Of a stretch of DNA of 64,000 nucleotides, positions 9,055-63,730 are shown one piece after another. This DNA is from a virus (taxonomy: Duplodnaviria; Heunggongvirae; Uroviricota; Caudoviricetes): positions 1-64,000 of the IMG/VR virus record IMGVR_UViG_3300012996_000001; one strand, 5' to 3'. The position numbers were made by a program, and so were the translations under genes. Position 1 is the first letter of the stretch. Each line of letters opens with the position of its first letter. The notes beneath the pieces were generated by a model. It saw nothing but the letters and a program-made list of their open reading frames with translations, was not told the DNA's origin and did no database searches.

Positions 9055-9195
9055 TGGACACGTTTATTCGTCTGGGGTACTATACCCTCTGGATCTTCTT
9101 GGTAGTCAAGTATGGGCTTCCTTGGCTATCTGCTAACCTTTGGGACAAGGGCGAAGATCGTTACAGTTACAGAAAATCAAGCAAAGGAGAATGAA

Positions 9196-9685: not shown

Positions 9686-9686
9686 C

Positions 9687-49772: not shown

Positions 49773-49966
49773 GCAATATGGAAAATTCAAGAGTTGAAGA
49801 CGTCCCTCACGTCATAAAGGACTCTGATGGGACAGTTGTAGCTATCGCACGCAATCTCGACATGGCCGAGAGTTTAGCTTCTGCCAGTCGGGAAGGATTC
49901 TGTGTGATAAGGGAAGCGGACGAAGATGACATAGCGGCGTTTGGACGCCGTCTGGTGGACGCATGA
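49769..49966 (+). CDS. hypothetical protein (65 aa)
   Basis: ORF. Confidence 0.35.
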   Translation: MSNMENSRVEDVPHVIKDSDGTVVAIARNLDMAESLASASREGFCVIREADEDDIAAFGRRLVDA

Positions 49967-50118
49967 CTCTCGGCATCGTAATCCTCGGCGGGTTCCTGCT
50001 GATAATAGCGGCGGGGGTGGTTGGGTATTACTTCGAGCGTTACCTAGATAGACGCTGGGCCAAGCAGGCCACAGAACGTATCTGGGAAAAACGCGATCAA
50101 TGGCTAAAGAGGGGCTAG
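49963..50118 (+). CDS. small membrane peptide (51 aa)
   Basis: ATG overlapping the upstream stop. One TM helix. Confidence 0.3.
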   Translation: MTLGIVILGGFLLIIAAGVVGYYFERYLDRRWAKQATERIWEKRDQWLKRG

Positions 50119-51568: not shown

Positions 51569-52302
51569 GAAAGACGGGCCCACGGTGGCCCCACCCTTCC
51601 CAACATTCCCAAAATATCTCGCTACGCAGTCACGCCTGTTACCCACACAGCCCTACCTGAAGAGTCATACCTGTACCACTACGTGACCTGCACCTGGCGA
51701 CGCCAGAGTCTGACCTACCTCAAATATCCTGTGTCTACACTGTATGAATATCCAGTCCACTTTTTAGTGAAAATTCCCTCCCGCCAAAATTTTTGATCAC
51801 CGATCTACGGGGGTGGTCTATTCTGTGCATCTCCCAAAATATTTAAGGGCACACCTGAAGGTTCCCGCGTAGCGTGGGCCCTGTGGCGTAGCCTGTCCCA
51901 ACAGTGAAGGTTGTGTCGTGTCTCGTCTGAAGAGACTGAAGAGTCCCGTCTGTTACTTTGCCCAACATAACGAGAGCCTGAAGAGGCAGACTTGCCTCTG
52001 TCCCGATGTCAGATGCCCTGGCCTTGCCCTTGGTCGACGAAGACGGATTTTCAGTCAGTACGTTGGCAGTGGTGTTAGGCACGGCGATCAGGGGTGGGGT
52101 GGGGCCCTATCGATCTTTTGAAAATATCATAACAATCAATGGGTTAGCCTGCATCGCGTAGCTGTTGACACAACGATGATTCTATGATTCTTTTCCTTTT
52201 GGGCCAACATTTGTTTGACAAAGTGACCAACTTTACACTGCTCTGATTGACAGACCACTTCGACTGTGATCCCAACGTGAATACGCATTTAACATAACAT
52301 AC

Positions 52303-52466
52303 CTTATACGCACTCTCTTGAATGAGAATCATTCGCACAGCACACACAACCCGGGCCCGAAGGGCCTCGGGGTGAGAATGGTTATCATTTCCCAACATGA
52401 ATACGAATGATAATGAGTCCCAAGTGCAGATGAGATTCATTCTCCGATGAGAACCATTATCGTTTA
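52303..52466. repeat. array of five 17-19-bp Fur-box-like imperfect palindromes (ATGAGAATnATTATCATT family)
   Basis: Copies: aATGAGAATCATTCg, gTGAGAATGGTTATCATTt, GAATGATAATGAGtc (inverted), gATGAGATTCATTCtc and gATGAGAACCATTATCgt. Confidence 0.5.
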
Positions 52467-52984
52467 CGCAAAAGAAAATAAAAATAAAAATTTCTGTTGA
52501 CACGAAGACCGAATTTTGTCTAGCAAACCATACCCAAACCATACCTGTTAGCGCATTTTGTGAGCAAACACAGCCCTGCACAGGCTTACGGTGCCCTTCA
52601 CCCTGGCCGGGTAGTCACCCGGCACAGGTCCGCCTGTTTACGTATCTATGCACAGAACGCGATTCTTTATTCATGAAATAAACTCTTGACTTTCAAGGCT
52701 TACAGCCTCAATAAAGACCAATAGAAAAAGGGGGTAAAGCACTCAACACAAGTTAAACATAGTTTAACGTTGAGCGCTGGGAACAAGCTGAGACATTTTG
52801 CGTAAACTCAGCTTTTCACGTAGTGGAAAAGTGAATCTACGATTCATCGCTTTAGCGACAGTGTAGCAAAATGGGGCGGGTTGGTTACCCTTTTTCTATT
52901 GGTCGCTCCCTACGGTCGCGCCCTCAACACTCTGAGCGCTGGGAACGAAAGACTAAGGAAAAATTTTGTAAATTGTTGATTTAG

Positions 52985-53000
52985 TTAATGATAATCATTA
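52985..53000. promoter_or_regulatory. perfect Fur-box core AATGATAATCATTATC
   Basis: 16/16 identity to the centre of the E. coli Fur consensus GATAATGATAATCATTATC. Confidence 0.45.
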
Positions 53001-53355
53001 TCGTATGCACAGAAATGCATAAGTATTGTAAAGATTATTCAGGATTTCATGAGTTTACTGATTTAGACTTTATGCACATTTTATAGGTTGAGTCAACAGG
53101 GTTAAATCCTTCGTATAAGCCATCCTGAGCACAGTTAGGGTTGGGCAGTACCCTAGCCCATTTTGGCGGATATGTCGTTAATAAGCACTTTGCTGCATAG
53201 AATTGGATGAGAATAGATCGCATTTCCACAAAAGGGTAGTTTTAGGTTGGATTGTTGAATGATGGGTTACTACAGGTTGGGGGTGGCTGATCTGCCCACT
53301 TACCGTAGGCAAAGAAAAGCCCGCTCAAGGCGGGCCAGTCTCAGTATCTAATCTT

Positions 53356-53505
53356 TTATTCTTTAACTTCCTTTACCTCATACCCTCTCACACCGCGTAT
53401 TTGAGCAAACATGAACTTGCCTGTTTCCGAGGCGTCTTTGTATGTGTTATAAGTACCTTCTAACTCGATTTCGCCATCAAAGTGTTTTACGTAAAGTTGA
53501 AACAT
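53356..53505 (-). CDS. small hypothetical protein (49 aa)
   Basis: Not in the track. AAGGG RBS. Followed on the minus strand by terminator 53305-53340 (GGCCCGCCTTGAGCGGGC plus T-run). Confidence 0.35.
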   Translation of the reverse strand: MFQLYVKHFDGEIELEGTYNTYKDASETGKFMFAQIRGVRGYEVKEVKE

Positions 53506-53565
53506 AATTAAGCCCTTTTAGATCTGGGTTAGCGTTATTGCCTCCCGATGAAAAGATTATACGAC

Positions 53566-53590
53566 AAAAGCCCCTTTCGGGGCAAGTGTT
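53566..53590 (-). terminator. terminator hairpin GCCCC-GAAA-GGGGC, overlapped by the next minus-strand promoter (TTGCCC-N18-TATAAT, 53556-53585)
   Basis: Hairpin followed by TTTTGTCG on the minus strand. On the plus strand it also precedes a T-run. Confidence 0.45.
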
Positions 53591-53605
53591 TTTATGCTTT
53601 TACTG

Positions 53606-53791
53606 TTATTTTCTTTCACCTTCTATTGCGTCAATAAACGCGCTAACGTCCATTGTAAAACTTAAAGCGCCTGACCGCTTACAAGGAAGATCCCGCAAAT
53701 ACTCAATATTTCCTTGCATTACAATGGCTGTTTCTAGGTATCTTAACGCTTTATGTAAAATGTGTGCATTCGGGTAGTTTTCTTTTTTCAC
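53606..53791 (-). CDS. hypothetical protein (61 aa)
   Basis: ORF in the leftward early cluster. Confidence 0.35.
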   Translation of the reverse strand: MKKENYPNAHILHKALRYLETAIVMQGNIEYLRDLPCKRSGALSFTMDVSAFIDAIEGERK

Positions 53792-54003
53792 TCTATCACC
53801 TGATAGCCGATTGTTTCACACCAAGAGAGCGCTTGCTCTTTCGTGTCAAATCTGCATTTCTCTATTGCCTCGTTAGCCCGATAACCTGACTTTATTTTCA
53901 GAGTGTAATCAACTCTGTGACGATAACGATTAGTGATTATCTTAACTTTCATGGCGTTACCCTCATTTATTTTTACTTTCTTTTCACAAGATAGTCTGCC
54001 CAT
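53788..54003 (-). CDS. hypothetical protein (71 aa)
   Basis: ORF with ATGA overlap. Confidence 0.35.
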   Translation of the reverse strand: MGRLSCEKKVKINEGNAMKVKIITNRYRHRVDYTLKIKSGYRANEAIEKCRFDTKEQALSWCETIGYQVIE

Positions 54004-54221
54004 TCGAAAGACAAACTTAAGTTTTCGCCTGTTTCATCACCCACCCAAACCCCGTCGCCTTTGTATGTTGCTGTTGCCTTAAGGAAGTAATCTTCTCTGG
54101 CAACTGACCACTGGAAAGCGTGATAGACACAACCAATCTCAGCACAATAGGCCGGGCCCAATTTTTCAATGTCATTCACGATAGCCAATCTTGACTTAGC
54201 AAAGTAGTATTTTGGTTCCAT
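53973..54221 (-). CDS. hypothetical protein (82 aa)
   Basis: ORF. Confidence 0.35.
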   Translation of the reverse strand: MEPKYYFAKSRLAIVNDIEKLGPAYCAEIGCVYHAFQWSVAREDYFLKATATYKGDGVWVGDETGENLSLSFEWADYLVKRK

Positions 54222-54321
54222 GATTTTTACCTTTTGATTAGTAGATATTTACCCTATAGGAGAAATAATAGCAAAAAGGCCCACACCATGCAAGAGTGTA
54301 GGCCAATTATTTTTGTAAAGA

Positions 54322-54630
54322 TTAGCGGCTATTCGCCTTGAGCCAACGGCGCATAAAGCGATAAGCATTGTCTTTGTGTGGGCCTTCCCGTAGGCTTACC
54401 CTTTCCAGGTAATCAATAGACAATTCTCCGCGCTTACGGACTAAGCGCAAAAGGGACAAAGTGTTGGCTACCTTATGCCGGGGATCGTGCCTGATGCCGC
54501 CTGCATTCAGATTTACGACGCTGTGAATAGTCACTTTAGCCATCTTATCAAAAGCGCCATGAAACAGCTTTAAAGGCGGGGCCTTTCGTTGTTGATACCA
54601 GGCCAACACGGTTAAGGAAGTATTGATCAT
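54322..54630 (-). CDS. hypothetical basic protein (102 aa)
   Basis: ORF. Confidence 0.4.
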   Translation of the reverse strand: MINTSLTVLAWYQQRKAPPLKLFHGAFDKMAKVTIHSVVNLNAGGIRHDPRHKVANTLSLLRLVRKRGELSIDYLERVSLREGPHKDNAYRFMRRWLKANSR

Positions 54631-54800
54631 ATTTCACCCATGCATGATTGTTTGGTAGCAATAGTGTATGACCGGAATCAGGACAATGATCACGGCGTAG
54701 TCGACAACATCAAAAAACTCTTTTAAATCACGGATAACGTTTTTCATCTTTTCACCTGGCTGTAAGGAAGTTATTTCCGGGTCTCTTGCCCGATGAAAAG

Positions 54801-54829
54801 ATTATAGGTTATAACGTGAACCGATGCAA
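54801..54829 (-). promoter_or_regulatory. sigma70 promoter TTGCAT-N17-TATAAT (leftward)
   Basis: Reverse complement of ATGCAAgcgaattttatagctcaATTATA. Downstream 5' leader TCTTTTCATCGGG is shared with the promoters at 53556 and 55730. Confidence 0.5.
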
Positions 54830-54836
54830 GCGAATT

Positions 54837-55181
54837 TTATAGCTCAATGTTGTTTAGGTAAGCTAACATCTGGAAGTGTGATTTTGCCCGGTTTTCACCT
54901 TTGCGGAAACTACCAAAACCAGAGTTGATGATCTTGCTCATTTCCGTGATTTCGTACATTTCACCGCCAATGTGGCGTAGTGTAATGATAGTTGTTTCAT
55001 TCTGTACTTGGGCAATCACACCTTTTGCAGGGGTAAAGTCATTTGCACAGACACGGGGAGCAAAGCAGTTTTTAAGCCATTCAAAAATACACAATACAGA
55101 CCAAACCAGCAAGCACACAACGATAAGCACAAGAAACATTGAGACAATCGGATTTTTGATGATTTCGATTAGTGTGTTCAT
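54837..55181 (-). CDS. membrane protein (114 aa)
   Basis: N-terminal TM helix. Confidence 0.4.
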   Translation of the reverse strand: MNTLIEIIKNPIVSMFLVLIVVCLLVWSVLCIFEWLKNCFAPRVCANDFTPAKGVIAQVQNETTIITLRHIGGEMYEITEMSKIINSGFGSFRKGENRAKSHFQMLAYLNNIEL

Positions 55182-55227
55182 TTTCTATTCTCTGTTGGGT
55201 TGGCTTTATTGCCTGATAAATAATTTA

Positions 55228-55258
55228 TCAAAAGCGCCTGATGAAAGCAAGCGCTTTT
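55228..55258 (-). terminator. bidirectional hairpin terminator AAAAGCGC-CTGATGAAAGCAA-GCGCTTTT
   Basis: Perfect 8-bp stem flanked by A-run and T-run. Confidence 0.5.
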
Positions 55259-55268
55259 ACTAATTATT

Positions 55269-55592
55269 TTAATTTTCCCGACAATCGCAACAATCACAAT
55301 GATCATCGATTATTCTTTTCCGCATCGCCGCCGGGGATAACTCCGCTATAGCATCCTGCATCGCAAAGATCGTTTCCAAGTCCTGGCGATGTTCCGCAAT
55401 GTAATCAAAGGTGCGCTGTTTGTCTCTGAATAGGTTCCCGGTATGGTTACTGTGGAGACCATCAACGAAAGCGCCTAAAACATCATCGCCGTGCTGTTTG
55501 AGTTTTTCGTAGCCTTTGATTTCAATTTCGCCGTGTTTACTTTTAACAGTGTACACAACAACAGATTCGATAGTGAATTTTTCAGTGCTCAT
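55269..55592 (-). CDS. hypothetical protein with C-terminal HCDCCDC cysteine cluster (107 aa)
   Basis: ORF. Confidence 0.4.
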   Translation of the reverse strand: MSTEKFTIESVVVYTVKSKHGEIEIKGYEKLKQHGDDVLGAFVDGLHSNHTGNLFRDKQRTFDYIAEHRQDLETIFAMQDAIAELSPAAMRKRIIDDHCDCCDCREN

Positions 55593-55729
55593 ATTTGATT
55601 ACCATCCGCAAAGAATGCATATTGAGGCTGCACAGACAACAGCGATTAAGGCAGAAATTACGAAGATAGCGAACATGATTTTTACCTCTCTGTCATCTGT
55701 GTGTTTTGGCCTTCTGGCCCGATGAAAGA

Positions 55730-55759
55730 AGTATAGGTCATTTCACTATCTGCCGTCAA
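55730..55759 (-). promoter_or_regulatory. sigma70 promoter TTGACG-N18-TATACT (leftward)
   Basis: Reverse complement of the + strand AGTATAggtcatttcactatctgcCGTCAA. Confidence 0.5.
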
Positions 55760-55931
55760 TAGTTATTTTAGCGATTCCTCAAATGTTTTTTAGCCATAAG
55801 CCGCGCCGTTACTTTACTATGCCCGGCTTCCATGTAATAACGAACCAGGCGATCAAGATTGTGCCGCTTTTCTGCTTTGGTCTCTCCGGTTGGTATCCAT
55901 CCACCCCAATCACTGAATAGCTTACGATCAT

Positions 55932-56234
55932 TCATACTTGAGCCTCTTCCGCTATGGCATCATTAACGATACGGGCAATGACGCCGGGAATCCGGTCCGC
56001 TGCCAAAGGATAGCTTTTCACATGTTCAATAACACCATGCCCTTTAATACTGACCCGATAAGCAACTTGAAAAAAGCCAGGTGACGAACAAGTGACAGCA
56101 AGTTCAATACCGCTGCCGCTATGATCATCCTTATGGCGGAAATTGATCAACGTCTCCGCGTCAAAACGGGAAAAGTCGGTCACAATGTAAGGGTTAACAG
56201 CGGACAGGAAGAAAAATTTATTTGCTTGTTCCAT
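55932..56234 (-). CDS. hypothetical protein (100 aa)
   Basis: ORF. Confidence 0.4.
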   Translation of the reverse strand: MEQANKFFFLSAVNPYIVTDFSRFDAETLINFRHKDDHSGSGIELAVTCSSPGFFQVAYRVSIKGHGVIEHVKSYPLAADRIPGVIARIVNDAIAEEAQV

Positions 56235-56278
56235 TTTGGAGCCTCATTAGGTTTGTGTTTCATCTGTTGATAGCCCGT

Positions 56279-56308
56279 ATTCTACAACGAGCTATCCGCC
56301 GATGTCAA
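56279..56308 (-). promoter_or_regulatory. sigma70 promoter TTGACA-N18-TAGAAT; -10 flanked by IR GATAGC/GCTATC
   Basis: Reverse complement of + ATTCTAcaacgagctatccgccgaTGTCAA. Confidence 0.5.
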
Positions 56309-56484
56309 CGCTTAATTGTAACTTTATCCGCCTCTTTGAAGTAGGCGCGGATCTGTCCCGGCAACAATCGTAAGTCGGCTTGCAGGTGTGACAGACGATA
56401 GGACCGCCCGGCGGTTAAAACATGTTGACCGCAACCATTGCCAATAACGATGTTTACAGTGCATACTAACAGGGAGGCTCTCAT
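56305..56484 (-). CDS. hypothetical protein (59 aa), alternative to track ORF 56324..56527
   Basis: ATGA overlap with the stop of the upstream gene and an AAGGTGG RBS. Frame choice is uncertain. Confidence 0.3.
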   Translation of the reverse strand: MRASLLVCTVNIVIGNGCGQHVLTAGRSYRLSHLQADLRLLPGQIRAYFKEADKVTIKR

Positions 56485-56876
56485 GCTGCCACCTTTGAAC
56501 GGGGGTCATTAGTGACACGGTAGACAAATCGGTAACCTGTGGGGATCTCCACCCGGCGGGCCTCTTTCAATTCATAGCCTAATTGCCCGAGCTTAAATAA
56601 AGGCGTTTCCACACCACGGTTAACAGACTGTTCACGGCGGTAAGGGGAAGTCAAAACAACCGGGCCAAATGCGTTAAGATAACCGTTAGCGGCTGCATCT
56701 TCTGATCCGCCACTGACCAGCCAGGCGGAATATTTGTTGATACTGTTGCCGTTCACGTCGCGGCCAAAATCGAAAGTTTCAAGGACAATGAACAGATCAC
56801 CATCTTGGAAAGCTTCGACGTTCTGCATTGCTGATACTGCATCTTTGAGAGTGTGCTTGATGTTTAACATTTTCAT
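56481..56876 (-). CDS. hypothetical protein (131 aa from MKMLNIK)
   Basis: The track extends it to 56951, but that would run through a consensus promoter. Internal ATG 56876 has an AAAAGG RBS. Confidence 0.4.
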   Translation of the reverse strand: MKMLNIKHTLKDAVSAMQNVEAFQDGDLFIVLETFDFGRDVNGNSINKYSAWLVSGGSEDAAANGYLNAFGPVVLTSPYRREQSVNRGVETPLFKLGQLGYELKEARRVEIPTGYRFVYRVTNDPRSKVAA

Positions 56877-56922
56877 AATGTGTGTACCTTTTAAGGGTTG
56901 ATTTCGTTTGTCTGTAGGCCCT

Positions 56923-56951
56923 ATTATGCAGGACCTACAAACCAGCGTCAA
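56923..56951 (-). promoter_or_regulatory. sigma70 promoter TTGACG-N17-CATAAT; -10 inside IR GTAGGTCC/GGGCCTAC
   Basis: Reverse complement of + ATTATGcaggacctacaaaccagCGTCAA. Confidence 0.5.
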
Positions 56952-57281
56952 TCAATTTAATTCTAAACGCTGCATTTTATCTTTAAAACTGTCGTCTGCG
57001 TCTTGCAGGTTTTGCAAGTAAACTTCTTTCGAAGATAAACCGACCCATTGACCAGGCAACACACGGTAACAACCTGCGATCAAAAACTTGTTGCGATCAT
57101 TGGGCACTAATGTAACCTCTTCTGGATAACGCTGGTTAAGCAGGGTTACACAATCCGCTGCATCGCGGCGATATTCGGAGGCGCTGCCTGCGTAAACCTC
57201 TTCATAAGCAACTTCACATTTTTCAGCGTTGTTGCTGTCTACTGTGCAAAGGAATGAAGCGAGTACGATAGTTGCGATCAT
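56952..57281 (-). CDS. secreted protein with signal peptide (109 aa)
   Basis: N-terminal hydrophobic signal plus cysteines. Confidence 0.4.
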   Translation of the reverse strand: MIATIVLASFLCTVDSNNAEKCEVAYEEVYAGSASEYRRDAADCVTLLNQRYPEEVTLVPNDRNKFLIAGCYRVLPGQWVGLSSKEVYLQNLQDADDSFKDKMQRLELN

Positions 57282-57335
57282 GATATTTTACCTTTATCGG
57301 TTGTTGGTTGATTACTTTCGTTTGTCTATGCCGTC

Positions 57336-57365
57336 ATTATAGGCGACGGCATAACCTAACGTCAA
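57336..57365 (-). promoter_or_regulatory. sigma70 promoter TTGACG-N18-TATAAT; -10 in the loop of 9-bp IR TATGCCGTC/GACGGCATA
   Basis: A 50-nt block is near-identical to the one at 59555-59604. Confidence 0.55.
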
Positions 57366-57369
57366 GCGG

Positions 57370-57681
57370 TTAACGATTATTTTTCAGTTTCCAATCTTCA
57401 TATTGAGAAGGGGATATCATGCAGACCGTCTCACCAACCGGGAAATGATCCCAACCTGTGACGTAGTCTGTTGACAGAAGAATAGCCACACACTGCACAT
57501 TTTCCACTTCATCCTCGGTAACCATAAGATGCGGCGATGGTGCTTCAATTTCTTGCACGGTGATTGCAGTTTCACCCTTGTAAAATACGTCGCCGGGGAC
57601 AAGGTCTAAAACATTTTTAGTGAATTGCATATCAGATACCCCAACGACGAAAAGTGGATGATTTATTAGCCTTAAGTTCAC
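57370..57681 (-). CDS. hypothetical protein (103 aa)
   Basis: ORF. Confidence 0.4.
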   Translation of the reverse strand: MNLRLINHPLFVVGVSDMQFTKNVLDLVPGDVFYKGETAITVQEIEAPSPHLMVTEDEVENVQCVAILLSTDYVTGWDHFPVGETVCMISPSQYEDWKLKNNR

Positions 57682-57874
57682 GCTTAAGACGGTTACAGCG
57701 GTTTGACATTGCGAAGTGTGACGGGGTTACAATCGTTGCGCCCGTGTTAGTGTGGATTTTCATTACTTGCTGTTTCATGATTCGATTCCTGTTTGTTGGC
57801 GTTTCGTCGCCCTGTGATTGCATTATGTATCAACCAAACCAGGGCGTCAATAGCCTAAAACAAAAATATTTAAA

Positions 57875-58111
57875 TTATTTTACTGTGACTCGGACAGCCT
57901 CTAAAGTTGAGAGTGTCGCCGGGTCTGTGACCAGCGCTTGCCCCGTAGAGATCTTGACAGATTCACGGATCGCCGTGGCGGCCAGAGCCTTGCAGGTGGA
58001 GCGATAATTTTTACCATCTGTTACCAGGTACAGGGCAGAAAATCCACGGGGTTTAGTGGCAAGTAAGCGGGTAAACTCGGTAAGGCTGAAAAGGTTTTGC
58101 ATGGTGTACAC
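57875..58111 (-). CDS. hypothetical protein (78 aa)
   Basis: GTG/ATG start with a GAGGTG RBS. Preceded by hairpin GGGCCCATTTAGGGCCC plus T-run. Confidence 0.35.
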   Translation of the reverse strand: MYTMQNLFSLTEFTRLLATKPRGFSALYLVTDGKNYRSTCKALAATAIRESVKISTGQALVTDPATLSTLEAVRVTVK

Positions 58112-58325
58112 CTCAAATCAAAAATAAGGGCCCTAAATGGGCCCGTGTGCGGTTTAAAGTTTTTAGCCTTGTGTTGACCTGGTTCGGAGTTACTCCCAGT
58201 TATAGCGCGTTTTGCGGCGCTGTTGCTTGTTGCTCTTTTCCCGTGGCTGGCGGTCCTGTGCTTCGCTGTAGGACAAGCGGGCCCGGTGTGTTACTTTACT
58301 ACGATTTGCGTTTGTATGTAACATG

Positions 58326-58640
58326 TTAACCTCTGCGTCGTTGGGTTTGTTGTTGGTGCATATGTTGTCGCTGATCGATGATATCACAGATATCATCTTC
58401 ATTACTTTTGTAAACTTCATACACGATAGTAGCGCCCATCTCTTGACGATAGCGGATTGCGCCAACCATATCGATCTCTAGCATGGGGCCGTAATCACGA
58501 GATGATCCGATTTCGCCCCGATAATCATATTCAAAGTAACCGAACATTTTTTGAGCCTTTAACCAATTATGATGTGTTGCTGTCTTCATGCACCAAACAG
58601 CAAACACAACAAGGATGATGATAACGATTATTAAGTACAT
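58326..58640 (-). CDS. membrane-anchored protein (104 aa)
   Basis: N-terminal TM helix. Confidence 0.4.
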   Translation of the reverse strand: MYLIIVIIILVVFAVWCMKTATHHNWLKAQKMFGYFEYDYRGEIGSSRDYGPMLEIDMVGAIRYRQEMGATIVYEVYKSNEDDICDIIDQRQHMHQQQTQRRRG

Positions 58641-58648
58641 AATCAGCC

Positions 58649-59053
58649 TTAATCGATGATCTTATTACGGCGTGCAAGTGTAATCAATGCCATAGCCAGC
58701 ATGGGAAAATAGTTGTCGATAGCGTCGCTAACCTTCTGGATACCTGCTACAGTATTGCTTTCTAAATCCTTTTCTGTCAAGTATTCCCACTTGATCAGCA
58801 ATTCCTGGATTTCATGATTAGTGAAAGCATGGTTGATAGTGCTTGGCAACCCTTGCAGGTAAGAAGTTAAGGACTTTTGAATACCTTTTCGCGGGTTTTC
58901 CCAACCGTATTCGGATTCAAAAGTTTCAAAGAAAAACTTGAGTTTTTCAAAGGTAGAACCCTCGTGATCGATAACAGAAACGGCGTAATCACGGACGGCG
59001 TGAATGTGGATCAGTTTTGCGGAAGTGTTGACAGTATTTGATTTGATAGTCAT
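58649..59053 (-). CDS. hypothetical protein (134 aa)
   Basis: ORF. Confidence 0.4.
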   Translation of the reverse strand: MTIKSNTVNTSAKLIHIHAVRDYAVSVIDHEGSTFEKLKFFFETFESEYGWENPRKGIQKSLTSYLQGLPSTINHAFTNHEIQELLIKWEYLTEKDLESNTVAGIQKVSDAIDNYFPMLAMALITLARRNKIID

Positions 59054-59136
59054 AGTCTTTATCTCGTTTGGTTTGGTAGTGTTTCTCTTAATGGATAGCC
59101 CACTGTAAAGGGCTATCGGTTAAGAGTCAACAAATA

Positions 59137-59541
59137 TTATAAATCTTTTTTGCGTGGAACGTCATACACGTTTTCACTGTAAGGTATTTTCAATTCCTGC
59201 GCTACTTGACAAATGTAGGCAAAGTTACGCCACTCTTTGGGACAATCTTGCACAGCCTCAATGAACAGGACTAAGGCTGTATTCTCAAAATGCCTTTCAT
59301 AGCCGTAAACGTCGGACACATAGGCCAGGTCTATCCAAACATCGCCTACTTTATTGCCGTAAGTGTTGGCGTTTAACCGATCTGCAACTTCGACAGATAC
59401 CAGGACACCAACAGAAACACTATGATAAGTATTCCCGGCGCTGCGTTGGAACCAACGTTTACCAGTGATCGAAATTTCTTTAATGTCTTTTGTCTGGAGT
59501 TCTGTTTGAAAAATCGCGAAATTTTTGCTCATTTTGGTCAT
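59137..59541 (-). CDS. hypothetical protein (134 aa)
   Basis: ORF. Confidence 0.4.
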   Translation of the reverse strand: MTKMSKNFAIFQTELQTKDIKEISITGKRWFQRSAGNTYHSVSVGVLVSVEVADRLNANTYGNKVGDVWIDLAYVSDVYGYERHFENTALVLFIEAVQDCPKEWRNFAYICQVAQELKIPYSENVYDVPRKKDL

Positions 59542-59578
59542 TCCTGTATGTTGATTACTTTCGTTTGTCTATGCCGTC

Positions 59579-59608
59579 ATTATAGGCGACGGCATAACCA
59601 CACGTCAA
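59579..59608 (-). promoter_or_regulatory. sigma70 promoter TTGACG-N18-TATAAT with IR TATGCCGTC/GACGGCATA (duplicate of 57336)
   Basis: Reverse complement of + ATTATAggcgacggcataaccacaCGTCAA. Confidence 0.55.
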
Positions 59609-59610
59609 GC

Positions 59611-59820
59611 TTAAATTACGTCGGTATATAAATTTTCAAGTTCTCCAGAAAAAACAGCTACCGATCCGTAAGCAGACAGATCAAAATCTTCCAGGTCGCC
59701 AAAATCATTTTGGTAATCTTCTTTCGCCGCTGCTACAAAAGCGGCGTGGGGGCCTTCAGCCTCGATACGATAGATTGGGTTCGTATTGTCAATGCTTAAA
59801 ACCACGGTGAATTTTTTCAT
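59611..59820 (-). CDS. hypothetical protein (69 aa)
   Basis: ORF. Confidence 0.35.
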   Translation of the reverse strand: MKKFTVVLSIDNTNPIYRIEAEGPHAAFVAAAKEDYQNDFGDLEDFDLSAYGSVAVFSGELENLYTDVI

Positions 59821-59863
59821 TTTGTTTCCTTTATTTGGGTAATTTTATTTGTCTATGTCGGTT

Positions 59864-59892
59864 ATTATGAAGACAGTGTGCAATGAAGTCAA
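59864..59892 (-). promoter_or_regulatory. sigma70 promoter TTGACT-N17-CATAAT
   Basis: Reverse complement of + ATTATGaagacagtgtgcaatgaAGTCAA. Confidence 0.45.
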
Positions 59893-60125
59893 GCGGTTTT
59901 TACCAAATTATTAAAAAATTCCTGTGGCTTAACATGGGCGTTTTTGCCACCATTACCCAACCAAGCGTTAAGATGGCGGGTTGTCGTGGTGCTATACTTA
60001 CGATCTACCTTGTAGCTGATTCCGCCGATGACCGCCGCCACTGGTGTGCTGTAAGAATAGAAAACCTGTGAGCCGTCGGCCAGGGTGATCATGGTTTGGT
60101 TTGCGCCGATAGTAGTCAGATTCAT
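59889..60125 (-). CDS. hypothetical protein (78 aa)
   Basis: ORF. Confidence 0.4.
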   Translation of the reverse strand: MNLTTIGANQTMITLADGSQVFYSYSTPVAAVIGGISYKVDRKYSTTTTRHLNAWLGNGGKNAHVKPQEFFNNLVKTA

Positions 60126-60177
60126 TTTGTAGCCCCGTTTGTTTGATTGTTGTTACTGTTTCGTTTGCATATGCCGC

Positions 60178-60207
60178 TATTATATGTGGCGGCATAAACC
60201 AACGTCA
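60178..60207 (-). promoter_or_regulatory. sigma70 promoter TTGACG-N18-TATAAT with IR TATGCCGC/GCGGCATA
   Basis: Reverse complement of + ATTATAtgtggcggcataaaccaaCGTCAA. Confidence 0.55.
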
Positions 60208-60217
60208 ACAATTATTT

Positions 60218-60457
60218 TTAGCAAACTGTAACTTTTTCGCCGTCTACCATTATGTAAGTGTGCCCGGCGTTGCTGTACTGGTCAACATAAATCCGGCGGC
60301 GCTTTCCTTGATAGTTAAGCATATAAGAGGTAGGGATCTTTGTGCCATAGCCCGTAGCGGTTTTTTGTAGGCCCTGGCGTTGCCATTCAAGCGGTGCGTA
60401 GATCGGAGCGTAGAAGTCTGAGGCATGATCGGGGTGGCTAATCATTACGGTTTTCAT
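60218..60457 (-). CDS. hypothetical protein (79 aa)
   Basis: ORF. Confidence 0.4.
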   Translation of the reverse strand: MKTVMISHPDHASDFYAPIYAPLEWQRQGLQKTATGYGTKIPTSYMLNYQGKRRRIYVDQYSNAGHTYIMVDGEKVTVC

Positions 60458-60511
60458 TTACGGTTACCTTTTCAGTTTTGGCGGCGGTCATTCCGTCGCT
60501 CTATGGGATAC

Positions 60512-60540
60512 ATTATGGATAGTATCGGGGCCGGAGTCAA
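60512..60540 (-). promoter_or_regulatory. sigma70 promoter TTGACT-N17-CATAAT
   Basis: Reverse complement of + ATTATGgatagtatcggggccggAGTCAA. Confidence 0.45.
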
Positions 60541-60560
60541 TACCCCAAAACAAAAATAAT

Positions 60561-60950
60561 TTAAATATTTATGCCGCTGTCTTTTGGGTCTATAGTACCG
60601 CCGTTGTCGATGATGCAGCGGATCACGGCATCACCCATTGCCTTGCATTCTGCCCAAGTGGGGGCCAGTATTTCAATATAGGGAAAGCAGGCAGCGCCGC
60701 CAGGGAATTGATTGATATCGGCTTGACCGCTCGTTTCTGCATTTGAGGCGGCAACATGAACGGCATTATTTAATTCGTCCCATTCCAGATAGGGAAACTT
60801 TTGATCGCTTTCGTCGTTGATGAACTCCCCGGCCTTATCGTGGGAATCGTAGGATACGTAACAACGAAACATAGGTTGCACAACAACAGAAGGGATTTTG
60901 TTTTTCATGGGACGGACTCCAAAATAAAATAGCCCGGCATCGCCGGGCAT
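60561..60950 (-). CDS. hypothetical protein (129 aa)
   Basis: ORF. Confidence 0.4.
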   Translation of the reverse strand: MPGDAGLFYFGVRPMKNKIPSVVVQPMFRCYVSYDSHDKAGEFINDESDQKFPYLEWDELNNAVHVAASNAETSGQADINQFPGGAACFPYIEILAPTWAECKAMGDAVIRCIIDNGGTIDPKDSGINI

Positions 60951-60956
60951 ATTGTG

Positions 60957-61247
60957 TTAAACTACGGCTTCCCAGGCGGATTTACCAGTATTGGCAACTT
61001 TCACCACGTCACCGCTAGTCACCTGCACATTGTAGAGCGGGTTACCGTCTTTGCCTGTCTCTTTGTCAGAGTACACAGCAACGATTTTATCAAACGGGCT
61101 CAGTGCACCCTTTTTGATGCGTTTGCCGTTACCATCGGTAATGAAACCAATATGCACAGAATCGCCAACCTTTGGATCACGCAATTCAGGGTTAGTTTTT
61201 GCACGATGAGCATTGATCATTTGGGTAGCTGTGGTTTCTTTTTTCAT
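60957..61247 (-). CDS. hypothetical protein (96 aa)
   Basis: ORF. Confidence 0.4.
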   Translation of the reverse strand: MKKETTATQMINAHRAKTNPELRDPKVGDSVHIGFITDGNGKRIKKGALSPFDKIVAVYSDKETGKDGNPLYNVQVTSGDVVKVANTGKSAWEAVV

Positions 61248-61315
61248 CTGTAAATCTCCTCTTGGGTTTAAAGTAGGGCTATCTTAGCACAGCCCTGTTC
61301 ACGGGTAAATAAATA

Positions 61316-61531
61316 TTAACGCTTTTTGATAGATAAAGTGCCGCCAACATGCTTAGCAGTGACGCGCCAACCGGATTCGGTTTTTACTGGCGCTGTCGGC
61401 GTGATACCGCTTTGGCGAAGGCGCTTAGCGATAGCGCGGGCATCGTCCCGAGTACGGAAAGCGGGCATAGTTACAACAGCCGCCAGGTTTACAGCCGGGG
61501 TCGGACGTTTCTTAATCTTAACTGTAGCCAT
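61316..61531 (-). CDS. small basic protein (71 aa), possibly DNA-binding
   Basis: ORF rich in K/R. Confidence 0.35.
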   Translation of the reverse strand: MATVKIKKRPTPAVNLAAVVTMPAFRTRDDARAIAKRLRQSGITPTAPVKTESGWRVTAKHVGGTLSIKKR

Positions 61532-61578
61532 GATATCACCTTTGTTTAGTGGGTTTGTTTCTTCTCTTGATAACCCAT

Positions 61579-61608
61579 ATTCTATTATGGGTTATCCGGC
61601 GAAGTCAA
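61579..61608 (-). promoter_or_regulatory. sigma70 promoter TTGACT-N18-TAGAAT flanked by 10-bp IR ATAACCCATA/TATGGGTTAT
   Basis: Reverse complement of + ATTCTAttatgggttatccggcgaAGTCAA. Confidence 0.5.
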
Positions 61609-61611
61609 CAA

Positions 61612-62052
61612 TTATTTTACGACACGTACATATTTATATTGCTGCTCTGCACTGATGCCGCCCGTACTGTTGGCGCGTGGTACTTCCAGGTGAGACGGTA
61701 ACCAACCTGTAGACACACCTACATTGAAGCGGCGGATCTCACCGTACAAAGTTTCAACCTCAACGCGGCGGCCCTCTAAGCCTTTAAGCTGTGGCGATAG
61801 TTGAACCGGGCACTTAATTTTCTTGTGGTTGCAATAGCGTGAAACCTGAGAGATCACTTTTTGGCAAGCCTCAAAGTGCTTCTTAGTTCCAACACGGGCC
61901 GGGATTTGTGGGATAGCTTGCGGGTCCTGTTTAAAGAGCCAATCACGCAAGGCAATAGCCTGTTTGTTTAAGTAATCGAAACCGTTACAGGTGTAACCTG
62001 TGCCGTGGTTGAGAACATAAAGGCGGCGTGCTTTGTCGATTGAATGTAACAT
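61612..62052 (-). CDS. hypothetical protein (146 aa)
   Basis: ORF. Confidence 0.4.
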   Translation of the reverse strand: MLHSIDKARRLYVLNHGTGYTCNGFDYLNKQAIALRDWLFKQDPQAIPQIPARVGTKKHFEACQKVISQVSRYCNHKKIKCPVQLSPQLKGLEGRRVEVETLYGEIRRFNVGVSTGWLPSHLEVPRANSTGGISAEQQYKYVRVVK

Positions 62053-62104
62053 TTTACTGTCTCTCTTTGTTTGTGGTCGACGTTGTGTCGTCCTGTTGAG
62101 ATGA

Positions 62105-62134
62105 ATTATAGGCCGGGAGGATTCCCGGCGTCAA
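62105..62134 (-). promoter_or_regulatory. sigma70 promoter TTGACG-N18-TATAAT; spacer contains IR CCGGGAATCCTCCCGG
   Basis: Reverse complement of + ATTATAggccgggaggattcccggCGTCAA. Confidence 0.55.
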
Positions 62135-62153
62135 TACAATTTTTAAATTATTT

Positions 62154-62477
62154 TTACTTTTCGTCTAAGCCTTTGTAAATATAAGGCTTTCCGTCGACTA
62201 GGCTATACACAACATAGTTACCCTGGCGATCTTTATTCTTAAGAGTGATCGCTTTTGCTTCACATTGGGACAGGTTGCCAACATAAGCGGGGTCCAAGTC
62301 TGCAATGGTGACGGGACCAGGGGAAGGAAGAATTTTAAAGACAGCATAATCCCGGCTTACACTGTCATAACCTGCGAACCATTCCCCCTGGTTAGCATCG
62401 GATTTGTAACGGCAAGCGCGGATTGATCCTTTATGTGCTGCCTCTTGCCCTTCGATAAAATATTTTGTGTGCTGCAT
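62154..62477 (-). CDS. hypothetical protein (107 aa)
   Basis: First ORF of the leftward cluster. RBS AAGAGGAGG. Confidence 0.45.
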   Translation of the reverse strand: MQHTKYFIEGQEAAHKGSIRACRYKSDANQGEWFAGYDSVSRDYAVFKILPSPGPVTIADLDPAYVGNLSQCEAKAITLKNKDRQGNYVVYSLVDGKPYIYKGLDEK

Positions 62478-62547
62478 AGTAACCTCCTCTTATATAGGTG
62501 TGTTAAGTATGCGCCGAAAATATTGTTTTTGCAACTGTTGACACGCC

Positions 62548-62576
62548 GCTAAGATCTGCCCATAATAGAGACATAA
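62548..62576 (+). promoter_or_regulatory. promoter TTGACA-N17-CATAAT (rightward)
   Basis: Upstream of ORF 62595..62861. Confidence 0.45.
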
Positions 62577-62594
62577 ACAAACGAGGGCAATACG

Positions 62595-62861
62595 ATGAAA
62601 ACAAATACGGAATTATTAATACAGGCGTTAGGCTGGCAAAGCGGCACCGTTCACGAGGTGGCACAGCAGACCGGAATGACTGTCAGTCAAGTGTCAGAAC
62701 TGCACACTTTTGGCGACAGTGTTTACAATACCCCGCGCCGCCGGGGTCACTGGGACGCCAGCCAGGGTACTATCGCCGCTGCACCGTCTGACTTGAACGA
62801 CGCAAGCGGGTTAATCTCTTATTGGTACGGGGTTATCCAATTCCACAGGGGTTATTTTTAA
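62595..62861 (+). CDS. hypothetical protein (88 aa)
   Basis: RBS ACGAGGG. Confidence 0.4.
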   Translation: MKTNTELLIQALGWQSGTVHEVAQQTGMTVSQVSELHTFGDSVYNTPRRRGHWDASQGTIAAAPSDLNDASGLISYWYGVIQFHRGYF

Positions 62862-62868
62862 AATCCTA

Positions 62869-62898
62869 TTGACGGCCCGGAGCAAGGCGGGCTATATT
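62869..62898 (+). promoter_or_regulatory. promoter TTGACG-N18-TATATT driving a non-coding structured region
   Basis: No ORF follows. See the ncRNA candidate at 62905-63060. Confidence 0.4.
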
Positions 62899-62904
62899 AT
62901 TGGA

Positions 62905-63060
62905 ATAAAGAGAGTAAAAGCCACCCACGGCGCTAAACGGGGCTAGCATACCAGGGCACTGGTTGTAAGGTGGATCGCCGGTAGTTCGTCCTTACAAAAC
63001 TTGTGGGCGGTGTGTTATTAAATGGCGCTCGCCCCGTCGCCCCATAGGTGGCACACTAGA
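62905..63060 (+). ncRNA. candidate structured ncRNA
   Basis: Long-range helix GCCACC..CGGCG..ACGGGG (62928-62955) pairs with CCCCGTCGCC..GGTGGC (63027-63052). It encloses hairpins CCAGGGCACTGG and TTGTAAGG...CCTTACAA (8 bp). Confidence 0.3.
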
Positions 63061-63104
63061 AAAATATTAGCGGCTATCTCGTGATCCATTTTTTAAAACT
63101 CCTA

Positions 63105-63290
63105 AACGGCCAGAAAAATTTTTTCCTCTTTCGAAATTTCACAGGAAAATTTTTTGTCATTAGATAATTTTCGCCACCGAAAAAATGCGAGCACATATTT
63201 TTCCCCGCCCGAAAAATCGTACCTCCAAATTTTTGGCGCAAGAAAAATTGGCTCAGGTGAAATGAGAAATCCAAAATTTTCCGGCTAATG
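63105..63290. repeat. phased A5/T5 tracts (GAAAAATTTTTTC / CCAAATTTTTGG-type), about 7 copies at roughly 30-bp spacing
   Basis: Centres near 63113, 63147, 63182, 63213, 63228, 63245 and 63268. Track ORF 63074..63274(-) is probably spurious. Confidence 0.45.
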
Positions 63291-63316
63291 AATTTTGTAA
63301 AGATTGAAATTCCCCA

Positions 63317-63346
63317 TTGACTACGGGCCGGGGTTGATGCATAATC
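63317..63346 (+). promoter_or_regulatory. strong promoter TTGACT-N17/18-CATAAT (rightward)
   Basis: Followed directly by four Fur-box-like repeats. Confidence 0.5.
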
Positions 63347-63404
63347 TTATACATGGCGAGGGGTGACGGGATTCGCGAGGCAAACACGGGAGGTGCCTGT
63401 CGTT

Positions 63405-63520
63405 TTGCAAATGAGAATGATTATCATTCAGCAATGTAAATGAGAAAGATTCGCATTCAAGGTCTCAAATGAGAATGATTATCATTTGACTTTTTAGAAA
63501 TGAGAATGATTCTGATTTGC
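63405..63520. repeat. four tandem Fur-box-like 19-bp repeats AAATGAGAATGATTATCATT (two perfect, two degenerate)
   Basis: Copies start at about 63410, 63437, 63467 and 63496. GAGAATGATTATCATT matches the Fur-box core GATAATGATAATCATT at 14/16 positions. Confidence 0.5.
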
Positions 63521-63569
63521 ATTTTTATTTTCACCTACCACGAGGATTTCGAATACGTTTTTGATTTTA

Positions 63570-63730
63570 AAATTTCGATCGAGACCCCGGCGCGAGACCT
63601 CTGTCGAGAAACCGAACACGATCGAGAAATTAAAAAAGCGATCGAGACCCCAGTTTTTATAGCTCGACTTCTTGCTTTTGCTCTGGAGATAGTTTACGAT
63701 TGCCAAGCTAAAAAGTCGATCGAGACCCTG
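63570..63730. repeat. iteron-like repeats CGATCGAGACCCC (three full copies plus partials)
   Basis: Full copies at about 63579, 63640 and 63716; partials CGATCGAGAAA (63614), GTCGAGAAACC and GCTCGAC. Confidence 0.45.

Follow-up and report, generated by a model that had tools for sequence, protein, structure and literature searches.

We identified ten copies of the palindrome AAATGAGAATsATTmTCATTT in a 64-kb stretch of phage DNA (the window): five at 52320-52465 (left array), a single copy at 52986-53006 and a further four at 63409-63518 (right array). As originally predicted, the two arrays bound a leftward early cluster of ~26 small ORFs (53356-62477, minus strand). Judging from sequence comparisons, the arrays are candidate host-Fur sites that may form boundary elements around a terminal early segment. 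We hold this reading tentatively, as quite possible rather than probable.

The sites are real and confined to a few places. At up to three mismatches, the pattern AATGAGAATGATTATCATT gave nine matches in the window, representing six distinct sites (shuffle control: mean 0.02 matches; 0 of 100 shuffles reached nine). A position matrix recovered all ten sites, and outside both intergenic regions it returned only weak matches in the window, at 53208 (15.4 bits) and 38257 (14.1 bits). Across the whole 142-kb phiTE genome, strong matrix matches were limited to the two homologous intergenic arrays and three singles. Both arrays and the perfect 16-bp core of the original prediction were confirmed, with the core AATGATAATCATTATC at 52987-53002 rather than 52985-53000. 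This core lies in the lone box taaTGATAATCATTATCGtat (52986-53006, no strand assigned; 15-mer start 52989), which matches the E. coli 19-bp Fur consensus at 18 of 19 positions (52984-53002) and sits at the same place in CR9 (locus position 2133), phiTE (locus position 2355) and SSBI34.

The left array (no strand assigned) consists of five degenerate Fur-box-like palindromes with irregular spacing (50, 35, 23 and 17 bp). The matrix placed their 15-mer starts at 52323, 52373, 52408, 52431 and 52448, and the layout was kept in CR9 and phiTE. These sites carry 4-7 mismatches to AATGATAATnATTATCATT, compared to 1-4 in the right-array and lone sites. The right array, likewise without an assigned strand, holds boxes at 63412, 63441, 63470 and 63501, phased by 29, 29 and 31 bp. 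Two of them are perfect AAATGAGAATGATTATCATT copies, for which the predicted agreement with the Fur consensus at 14/16 core positions was correct. Position 4 of the half-sites switched independently between G and T and the spacers were not conserved, which fits protein-DNA recognition and not an RNA repeat.

The consensus AAATGAGAATsATTCTCATTT equals the 7-1-7 Fur palindrome AATGATAATnATTATCATT, the Vibrio/E. coli Fur consensus (PMC7536154), save for one symmetric T-to-G position. The strongly conserved positions of the phage sites (G2/C14, central AAT-n-ATT, A/T flanks) correspond to known Fur contact elements, as structures and EMSA place Arg57 on the guanine, Tyr56 on the thymines and Fur over an A/T-rich narrow minor groove (PMC4506495; PMC7536154). 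When a matrix built from phage sites only was run on 50 kb of E. coli K-12, its top six matches were in the fepB-entC, fepA-fes and fepD-entS promoters. These ent/fep regions span 726 bp, 1.5% of the scanned sequence and 16% of its intergenic DNA (counting four independent clusters and intergenic DNA alone, P is still about 6e-4). The G-for-T variant has a bacterial counterpart, with the TGAGAAT half-site present in the classic iucA (aerobactin) Fur operator directly upstream of iucA. The phage sites share with the iucA and ent/fep operators the 7-1-7 spacing, conserved G, central AAT-n-ATT and A/T flanks. However, the enterobacterial operators overlap the -35/-10 elements of iron-regulated genes and, in many cases, one another in 6-bp steps, whereas the phage sites are isolated 7-1-7 units, 29-bp phased, in gene-free DNA, with G favoured at position 4. 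The selection of real E. coli Fur operators by a phage-trained matrix supports the predicted Fur-box-likeness as functional, beyond resemblance to the eye.

The window is not T5-like; it belongs to an rV5-like myovirus (rV5 group) close to Certrevirus. The arrays were present in relatives with their positions kept (Certrevirus, Seunavirus, Mydovirus and Phapecoctavirus), and the right array usually retained its 29-bp phasing, as in CR9, CR3, phiTE, ukendt, Schickermooser, KP2025, KE23 and KPP-1. A blastn query with 63300-63530 matched 551 phage records. Boxes also occurred in Klebsiella phage KP2025, Aeromonas Plateaulakevirus and the T5-like Demerecviridae. Box-bearing lineages differ in their early proteins; the motif is unchanged between them. 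The same boxes adjoin TTGTTGATAA repeats in an unrelated A/T-rich viral contig.

Left-array homologues lie at mapped genome ends in two relatives. The conserved motif CATTTAACATAACATACCTTATACGCACTC (52284-52317, plus strand), just left of the array, is an invariant block in alignment A3 and is 87% identical to KPP-1 116519-116557, inside the mapped 514-bp terminal repeat of KPP-1, which holds two boxes (repeat: PMC9862379). Just right of the array lies a conserved TTGACA-N18-TAGCAA element (52497-52527, plus strand). The reported KPP-1 repeat boundary (116,829; PMC9862379) falls within the homologue of this element, the corresponding window position being set by homology only. The 329-bp terminal repeat of Schickermooser (PMC6563267) contains two strong boxes, and a 29-bp-phased array follows 13.7 kb from the end. 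With the left-array homologue inside a mapped short terminal repeat in both phages, the window's own end may lie at the left array. Against such a fixed end, PhageTerm has also classed Vequintavirus genomes as circularly permuted (PMC8407724). Between the left array and the lone box, we observed a structured non-coding element (52716-52904, plus strand) with a 17-bp closing stem and a multi-branch fold (z = -4.67). A compensatory change preserves stem pairing in CR9 and phiTE, and an Rfam search of the element gave no match.

The right array sits behind a conserved orphan sigma-70 promoter (63284-63345, plus strand) with an UP-like tract TTTTGTAAAGAnnnGnAA. The promoter predicted at 63317 exists (TTGACT-17-CATAAT, 63317-63345; 10/12 match) and reads rightward into the array, and all neighbouring genes are oppositely oriented. 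Its blocks are invariant in alignment A1 (7 phages, 4 genera). A G+C-rich leader of ~57 nt (63352-63408, plus strand) separates it from the first box; the leader's closing stem is weakly supported (8 pairs, one GC<->AU compensatory pair; z only -1.2). A T-rich tract GCATTTTTATTTT follows box 4, and a second repeat family, (C)GATCGAGAC(C), occupies 63575-63728 (plus strand; copies at 63577, 63620, 63640 and 63718, plus degenerate ones). This family also lies downstream of the array in Certrevirus and Aeromonas phage 2L372X.

We observed the same boxes in phage T5: the palindromic repeats in its annotated injection stop signal, iss (9140-10149), are built from them. The T5 boxes (9554-9713) surround the calculated 7.9% shear point, 9618, and blastn with the window's array matches T5-like genomes directly. 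The iss corresponds to Repeat Region 3, with DRC/DRE direct repeats and PalE-PalJ palindromes (Heusterspreute, Wang, Davison). T5 resembles the window in several respects: the same 21-bp palindrome (at 9658, aaaTGAGAATCATTATCAttt), of which the T5 array contains five or six; a long non-coding region along the inner side of a ~10-kb end-proximal early block of small, mostly end-directed genes; a second direct-repeat family after the boxes, in T5 nine GTGCAAATCCGACA (DRD) at the equivalent position; and a perfect box 233 bp from the left end, like the terminal-repeat boxes of Schickermooser and KPP-1. In contrast, the T5 block is itself a 10.2-kb terminal repeat (about 330-510 bp in the window's relatives), paired DnaA boxes stand beside the T5 array, the boxes of that array are unevenly spaced (35, 23, 46 and 35 bp, compared with mostly 29 bp in the window's right array), and the window, unlike T5, has a conserved promoter and leader ahead of the array. 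The identity with the iss palindromes and the placement of left-array homologues in mapped terminal repeats both go beyond the original prediction.

We propose that the binder would be a dimeric protein that recognises double-stranded DNA with Fur specificity, most likely Fe2+-loaded host Fur, with each 7-1-7 palindrome taking one dimer. BLAST-level searches found no phage DNA-binding protein common to the box-bearing lineages, although remote homologues could escape them, and host Fur is therefore the most economical candidate. The sites would be part of a conserved non-coding boundary module and not classical operators over promoters. One box set would lie at the physical end of the genome, in or beside a short terminal repeat, and the phased four-box set ~11 kb inward, behind an outward-facing orphan promoter and ahead of the second repeat family, so that both would bracket the terminal early-gene block. 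Because the boxes are the palindromes of the T5 stop signal, we suggest that a nucleoprotein block made with host protein forms on the arrays and marks the inner boundary of the DNA segment expressed first. Until the early functions have done their work, such a block may restrain transcription starting at the orphan promoter, further entry of DNA, or both. Both Fur binding and barrier function are proposed from sequence.

Several findings count against host Fur. Two thirds of the half-sites have G where every Fur-family consensus has T; G at position 4 could signal either another binder or a tuned affinity. A regular phasing of 29 bp resembles iterons more than Fur operators with 6-bp steps, and the left-array sites are weak matches. 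Fur is cytoplasmic, which counts against arrest of DNA crossing the envelope. To our knowledge, two-step DNA entry is documented solely for T5-like phages and has never been reported in rV5-like phages. In addition, searches at BLAST level could have missed remote homologues of T5 A1/A2 or some other phage protein shared by the box-bearing lineages.

As an alternative, a phage-encoded protein with Fur-resembling or Fur-mimicking specificity may recognise the boxes, which we consider unlikely. Candidates include an early DNA-binding protein, a T5 A2-like DNA-transfer protein, a palindrome-cutting nuclease and a small terminase. Consistent with such a protein, 67% of half-sites have G in preference to the Fur-consensus T at position 4, the strict 29-bp phasing points to a dedicated protein assembling cooperatively, boxes lie in terminal repeats where packaging and end-processing proteins act, and Davison proposes that the T5 palindromes are A1/A2 cleavage sites. 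However, searches of the window, of the complete phiTE genome and of the ukendt, Schickermooser, CR9 and KPP-1 early regions detected no homologue of T5 A1 or A2. The one T5 pre-early gene in common is T5.007/DUF7177 (window 60957-61247, in the early cluster), and it is missing from phiTE. The predicted phage-encoded Fur-like regulator was not found: 24 of the 26 early-cluster ORFs matched no Pfam family and the other two matched DUF7177 and the SPOR domain, neither a recognised sequence-specific DNA-binding fold. A gene for a small HTH-like protein, orf88 (62595-62861, plus strand), points toward the right array and adjoins it in the window, phiTE (phiTE_079, 51% identity, E 9e-26) and ukendt (36%, E 8e-8), but orf88 is absent from CR9, CR3, KE23 and KP2025, all of which retain the right array. 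A motif constant across families with unrelated early proteins is also hard to square with co-evolving protein-site pairs.

Alternatively, the replicating genome could act as a decoy, titrating host Fur and derepressing its regulon to give more iron for iron-dependent phage enzymes or more receptor. We regard this as doubtful, and distinctly improbable overall. Fur is present at thousands of molecules per cell, and by our own estimate hundreds of genome copies with ten sites each would be of similar size to this pool. Each genome has at least ten near-consensus sites, and genes in the window code for homologues of class Ia and anaerobic ribonucleotide reductases. Many high-quality Fur boxes on a replicon reaching high copy recall FURTA-type titration, but that is a laboratory artefact of cloned sites, and positional conservation in the phage suggests more than titration. 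We know of no natural phage Fur decoy. The virulent phage PAK_P4 does switch on host iron-uptake genes (PMC5563952), yet it has no Fur-box cluster, so this precedent works otherwise and lends no weight to the predicted derepression of siderophore-receptor genes (fhuA, fepA). Titration also has no need for conserved end or boundary positions, 29-bp phasing or a neighbouring promoter and second repeat family, and the T5 boxes belong to DNA that is already there when replication has yet to begin.

Classical iron-responsive repression, in which Fur-bound boxes shut phage promoters in iron-replete cells, is in our view very unlikely. Its targets would be the 63317 promoter, together with the non-coding RNA made from it, and the promoter-like sites adjoining the left array and the lone box. 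A weak promoter-like site (52966-52995) has its -10 overlapped by the lone box, the right array falls among the first 170 nt of the transcript from a strong conserved promoter, and the left array stands upstream of the conserved TTGACA element (52497), at a distance of 80-210 bp. However, the 52966 site is not kept in CR9 or phiTE, the right-array boxes stand at +60 to +165, not where Fur represses initiation, and the downstream genes include no iron-related one. The early cluster has repeated strong sigma-70-like promoters (TTGACG-18-TATAAT type), all without a box. Because the boxes do not overlap these promoters, promoter repression is unsupported, and the predicted iron- or Fur-dependent control of early transcription does not hold in the classical operator sense. 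Least probable is a transcription-activated replication origin. The four phased dyad-symmetric iterons, the inward-reading promoter and the A/T-rich tract do recall lambda-type origins, DnaA boxes accompany the T5 boxes, and in the unrelated A/T-rich viral contig the boxes have TTGTTGATAA repeats beside them, but no initiator gene adjoins, the motif matches a host regulator, no DnaA-box cluster was found at the window's right array, GC skew follows transcription direction with no origin signal, the two arrays differ in architecture, and in T5 the homologous array does not serve as an origin, T5 origins mapping near the genome centre and not in the terminal repeat (10.1101/866236).

The boundary reading with host Fur as candidate binder bears on T5 itself. 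The T5 stop requires no phage protein synthesis and is absent in FhuA proteoliposomes, and its host factor is an open question in the literature (10.1101/866236). Since the T5 injection stop signal carries the same boxes, host Fur becomes a testable candidate for this old question.

The window belongs to an rV5-like myovirus and is not T5-like. In its conserved genes, the DNA is ~75% identical to that of Certrevirus phages (Cronobacter phages CR3/CR9, Pectobacterium phage phiTE, Klebsiella phage KaOmega). The last rightward gene stops at 51568 and is followed by 1.8 kb without genes. The early cluster (53356-62477, minus strand) comprises ~26 small ORFs with repeated strong sigma-70-type promoters, and a second gene-free region extends from ~62.9 kb to the window end. 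GC skew was uninformative as an origin signal. Elsewhere, the window carries a cluster of ten tRNA genes (48-2693, minus strand; Gly, Pro, Asp, Trp, Asn, Met, Ile, Lys, Ser, Tyr). A 71-aa early ORF (61316-61531, minus strand) has a SPOR (peptidoglycan-binding) domain barely over the Pfam threshold (23.0 vs. 21 bits).

The palindromic repeat arrays described earlier do exist. The 19-mer used to define them matched six sites with ≤3 mismatches, compared to 0.02 expected, and a position matrix recovered all ten sites in the window. The 15-mers start at 52323, 52373, 52408, 52431, and 52448 in the left array, at 52989 in a lone box, and at 63412, 63441, 63470, and 63501 in the right array. Spacing is 29, 29, and 31 bp in the right array and irregular in the left. 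Compared with the Fur inverted repeat AATGATAATnATTATCATT, left-array sites, with 4-7 mismatches, are weaker than the right-array sites and the lone box, which have 1-4. The lone box (52984-53002) agrees with the 19-bp Fur consensus GATAATGATAATCATTATC at 18/19 positions, and right-array sites agree with the 7-1-7 form TGATAATnATTATCA at 14/15. The perfect 16-mer also reported is present, but it lies at 52987-53002, two bases from where it had been placed. The consensus of 36 phage sites from the window, phiTE, and CR9 was AAATGAGAATsATTCTCATTT, with information content peaking at G2/C14, the central AAT-n-ATT, and the A/T flanks. Only this 21-bp palindrome is kept; the inter-box spacers (8-10 nt) are not conserved. 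Because G and T also switch independently between half-sites, the pattern is better explained by a protein dimer bound to double-stranded DNA than by RNA repeats or hairpins.

We observed that the phage consensus departs from the Fur inverted repeat (PMC7536154) at a single symmetric position, where 67% of half-sites have G in place of T. In Fur-DNA structures and by EMSA, the recognition elements are a guanine that Arg57 binds, thymines that Tyr56 contacts, and an A/T-rich narrow minor groove that a lysine reads (PMC4506495; PMC7536154). The strongly kept positions of the phage sites correspond to these elements. In a reciprocal test, a matrix built from phage boxes alone was scanned over 50 kb of E. 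coli K-12 (595-645 kb). Its top six matches all fell in the fepB-entC, fepA-fes, and fepD-entS divergent promoters, which are the three Fur-controlled regions of that stretch and total 726 bp (1.5% of the sequence, 16% of intergenic DNA). This result upholds the proposed likeness to Fur boxes. The published aerobactin operator sequence was found in 641 plasmids at 100% identity, immediately 5' of iucA. The operator has the TGAGAAT half-site and includes TGAGAATCATTAT, which shows that the G variant can be part of a proven Fur site of high affinity. The consensus sequences of other E. coli regulators (ArgR, Cra, Zur, FNR, CRP, and NsrR) are not known to fit the 15-bp odd palindrome.

Conservation of the arrays in relatives was borne out. 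In the complete phiTE genome, apart from two single sites and the homologue of the lone box (49212), every strong match fell within the two homologous intergenic regions, at 39476-39571 and 49600-50023. CR9 has the same layout. The right array with its 29-bp phasing also occurs in CR3, Phapecoctavirus ukendt and Schickermooser, Klebsiella phage KP2025, Seunavirus KE23 (two boxes), and Mydovirus KPP-1 (two boxes). A blastn search with 63300-63530 matched 551 phage records, T5-like Demerecviridae included; their hosts are nearly all Enterobacterales or Aeromonas, and a few records name Acinetobacter or Campylobacter. An Aeromonas Plateaulakevirus among them carries the complete module: the promoter and leader, two boxes spaced by 28 bp, and GATCGAGACC-like repeats. 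We regard the feature as real, conserved, and genuinely Fur-box-like. An IMG/VR scan with the exact 15-mer returned nearly all single chance matches; only two contigs were noteworthy, L026 with at least seven boxes and L011 with two. L026 (3300026512_000013) is a very A/T-rich viral contig unrelated to the window, with at least seven TGAGAATnATTATCA boxes in one non-coding stretch (2340-2770) adjoining TTGTTGATAA(C) repeats. It appears to be an independent case of a Fur-box array in a phage.

The boxes are accompanied by other conserved elements. An alignment of seven genomes (the window, CR9, CR3, phiTE, ukendt, KE23, and KP2025) showed a sigma-70 promoter (63317-63345, plus strand), a UP-like tract, and a ~57-nt G+C-rich leader (63352-63408) ahead of the right array. 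In all seven, this orphan promoter and leader are directed into the array, opposite to the flanking genes. The closing stem of the leader has one compensatory pair, and its fold is not significant. Downstream of the right array, a second repeat family, (C)GATCGAGAC(C), is present in 4-6 copies (63575-63728, plus strand) and is conserved in Certrevirus and Aeromonas phage 2L372X. The left array is flanked by two conserved non-coding blocks, CATTTAACATAACATACCTTATACGCACTC (52284-52317) and TTGACA-N18-TAGCAA (52497-52527), which may serve in packaging or end processing. Between the left array and the lone box lies a 189-nt structured non-coding element (52716-52904, plus strand; fold z = -4.67) with a 17-bp closing stem, ACCAAUAGAAAAAGGGG / CCCUUUUUCUAUUGGU. 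The stem is preserved in CR9 and phiTE via an A:U to G:C change, and an invariant -35-like CTTGACTTT lies upstream. The element has no Rfam family and may be a phage small RNA gene. On either side of it, at 52776-52789 and 52931-52944, is TGAGCGCTGGGAAC; the two copies appear to change in concert, since CR9 and phiTE carry CCGTGGGAACG at both places.

We did not find a phage-encoded reader for the boxes. Pfam detected no Fur-like or other regulator among the 26 early ORFs, orf88, and two CR9 neighbours, and 24/26 early ORFs had no Pfam family at all. CR9 gp146, annotated 'DNA binding protein', was rejected as it has a pyrimidine-dimer glycosylase fold. The 88-aa orf88 (62595-62861, plus strand) has an HTH-like segment, GTVHEVAQQTGMTVSQVSEL, and a near-consensus promoter (62538-62566), with homologues in phiTE (phiTE_079) and, unannotated, in Escherichia phage ukendt. 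It is absent from the array-bearing CR9, CR3, KE23, and KP2025, which excludes it as a general binder. Homologues of T5 A1/A2 were not detected at BLAST level in the window, whole phiTE, or the early regions of four other relatives. The only T5 pre-early gene in common is a homologue of T5.007 (60957-61247, minus strand; 96 aa, DUF7177, 51% identical); missing from phiTE, it was rejected as a universal binder. T5.007 is itself among the few ORFs kept in all T5-like terminal repeats, and two phage groups that are otherwise unrelated both carry the gene in their early blocks. A motif constant across phage families whose early proteins are unrelated, and whose hosts are nearly all Enterobacterales or Aeromonas, would most simply have a conserved host protein as its reader, and Fur is the one with the matching code. 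We expect that Fur probably binds these predicted sites in vitro; that such binding is their selected function we would put at even chances.

The same motif occurs in the T5 genome (NC_005859), where boxes at 9554, 9589, 9612, 9658 (a perfect aaaTGAGAATCATTATCAttt), and 9693/9699 score 20-32 bits. They lie in the 10.2-kb left terminal repeat within the annotated injection stop signal (9140-10149), span the calculated 7.9% first-step-transfer point (9618), and are a short way left of the 9748/9 nick. They are followed by nine GTGCAAATCCGACA repeats, in the place that the (C)GATCGAGAC(C) repeats occupy in the window. The Klebsiella T5-like phage Sealy has four boxes (9576-9675). The window shares the repeat array of the T5-type stop region (Repeat Region 3), with the same motif and a blastn link to T5-like genomes. 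With its end placed by homology, the window would also parallel the T5 left end in layout: first the end and the early genes directed toward it, next a divergent promoter zone and a few genes directed inward, and finally the boxes and a second repeat family. They differ in that the T5 boxes are inside a ~10-kb terminal repeat, whereas the right-array homologue in relatives of the window lies outside their much shorter repeats. Separately, a perfect 7-1-7 box, TGATAATCATTATCA, lies within the dmp coding region of T5 (233-247), 233 bp from the left end.

In a comparative study of this part of Repeat Region 3, Davison described DRC and DRE direct repeats and PalE-PalJ palindromes, and stressed that the repeats are conserved while neighbouring ORFs are not (10.1101/866236). 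By position, these listed repeats should include the T5 Fur-like boxes. The T5 stop occurs without protein synthesis and not in FhuA proteoliposomes, and the host protein behind it was called unsolved; the only recent proposal is DnaA boxes with membrane-bound DnaA, and Fur is never mentioned (10.1101/866236). The paired DnaA boxes of the T5 stop-signal region (IRD'-spacer-IRC') have no counterpart next to the window's right array, where no TT[AT]TnCACA cluster was found around 62.5-63.5 kb. DnaA boxes were therefore ruled out as a common feature, none being at the right array. Matches were limited to a single TTATGCACA (53070) and, close to the lone box, two copies of TATGCACA. The three TATGCACA copies there (52647, 53004, and 53071, plus strand) include the full DnaA-box consensus at 53070; DnaA binding near the lone box is doubtful because CR9 and phiTE have TATGCAGA instead. 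Among the papers accessible to the search, we found none tying Fur to Vequintavirinae, Phapecoctavirus, or T5 repeats. The homology of the window boxes to the T5 stop-signal repeats is newly observed here.

Boxes are also associated with mapped genome ends. The terminal repeat of Schickermooser, reported as 328 bp (PMC6563267), is present at both ends of its record (1-329 = 150,866-151,194). Two strong boxes lie within the repeat, one box 680 bp outside it, and the phased array 13.7 kb from the mapped end; the early genes are directed toward that end. The 514-bp repeat of KPP-1 (116,316-116,829; PMC9862379) sits at the strand switch, in the homologue of the window's left region, 8.4 kb from the array. 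It contains two boxes and a conserved CATTTAACATAA... motif (87% identical to window 52284-52317), and its inner end falls within the homologue of the window's TTGACA-N18-TAGCAA element. The left-end box of T5 mirrors these boxes in short terminal repeats. Among relatives, the repeats measure 328, 458, and 514 bp, and the right-array homologue lies outside them. By homology, we infer that the left array is in, or at the inner edge of, the window's terminal repeat, roughly at 52.08-52.55 kb. With an end there, the early cluster would occupy the 11 kb next to it, and the right array would mark the inner boundary of the cluster. Some Vequintavirus genomes have been called circularly permuted by PhageTerm (PMC8407724). 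The association of boxes with terminal repeats is likewise newly observed here.

The best-supported reading is that the arrays would act as a host-factor boundary element of the terminal early segment, of the same kind as the T5 stop-signal repeats. In a more conservative version, in which a cytoplasmic protein need not stop DNA entry, they would be a transcriptional roadblock to the conserved orphan promoter. A further step, which we consider rather improbable, makes host Fur the cellular factor of the T5-type injection stop. The arrays, common to T5-like siphoviruses, rV5-like and phAPEC8-like myoviruses, and some Aeromonas phages, would then serve as an iron-sensing checkpoint for genome entry or for progression from early to middle stages. 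In an iron-replete cell, holo-Fur on the phased array, possibly bridged to boxes in the terminal repeat, would stall the genome where the early segment ends, to be released later by early proteins.

Other readings fit less well. If the boxes were purely a decoy that titrates host Fur, as had been suggested, their positional conservation, phasing, and companion elements would be left unexplained; the PAK_P4 precedent lends no support, because its full 93-kb genome has no site ≥15 bits and no box cluster. Classical Fur repression of early promoters, the iron-dependent control first envisaged, is unlikely because no early promoter bears a box. The boxes are at +60 to +165 from the orphan promoter at 63317 and far upstream (-80 to -210) of the 52497 element, overlap no -35/-10 of an iron-responsive gene promoter, and have no iron gene downstream. 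Of an iteron-type replication origin, repeats and a short T-rich tract are present, but this reading is unlikely because the homologous array of T5 is not an origin, the search for initiator-like genes was negative, and DnaA boxes are missing at the right array. Type III antitoxin RNA repeats (ToxI or pseudo-ToxI) were rejected because the spacers are unconserved and the G/A asymmetry of half-sites breaks hairpin pairing; no Rfam family was found at gathering or E ≤ 1, and the pseudo-ToxI of phiTE sits at 106,714, away from its arrays.

The boundary-element reading bears on an old problem, as the T5 entry pause at 7.9% has had no known mechanism for >50 years. Our comparison shows the conserved palindromes at that site to be predicted near-consensus Fur boxes. 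What T5 has in common with the boundary regions of several large virulent phage groups is Fur-like boxes, not DnaA boxes. If true, this would be the first virulent-phage architecture built on a host iron regulator, and iron in the gut or at infection sites would bear on therapeutic rV5-like, phAPEC8-like, and T5-like phages. Even were another protein the selected binder, a genome that carries ten near-consensus Fur sites should disturb the host Fur regulon as it replicates.
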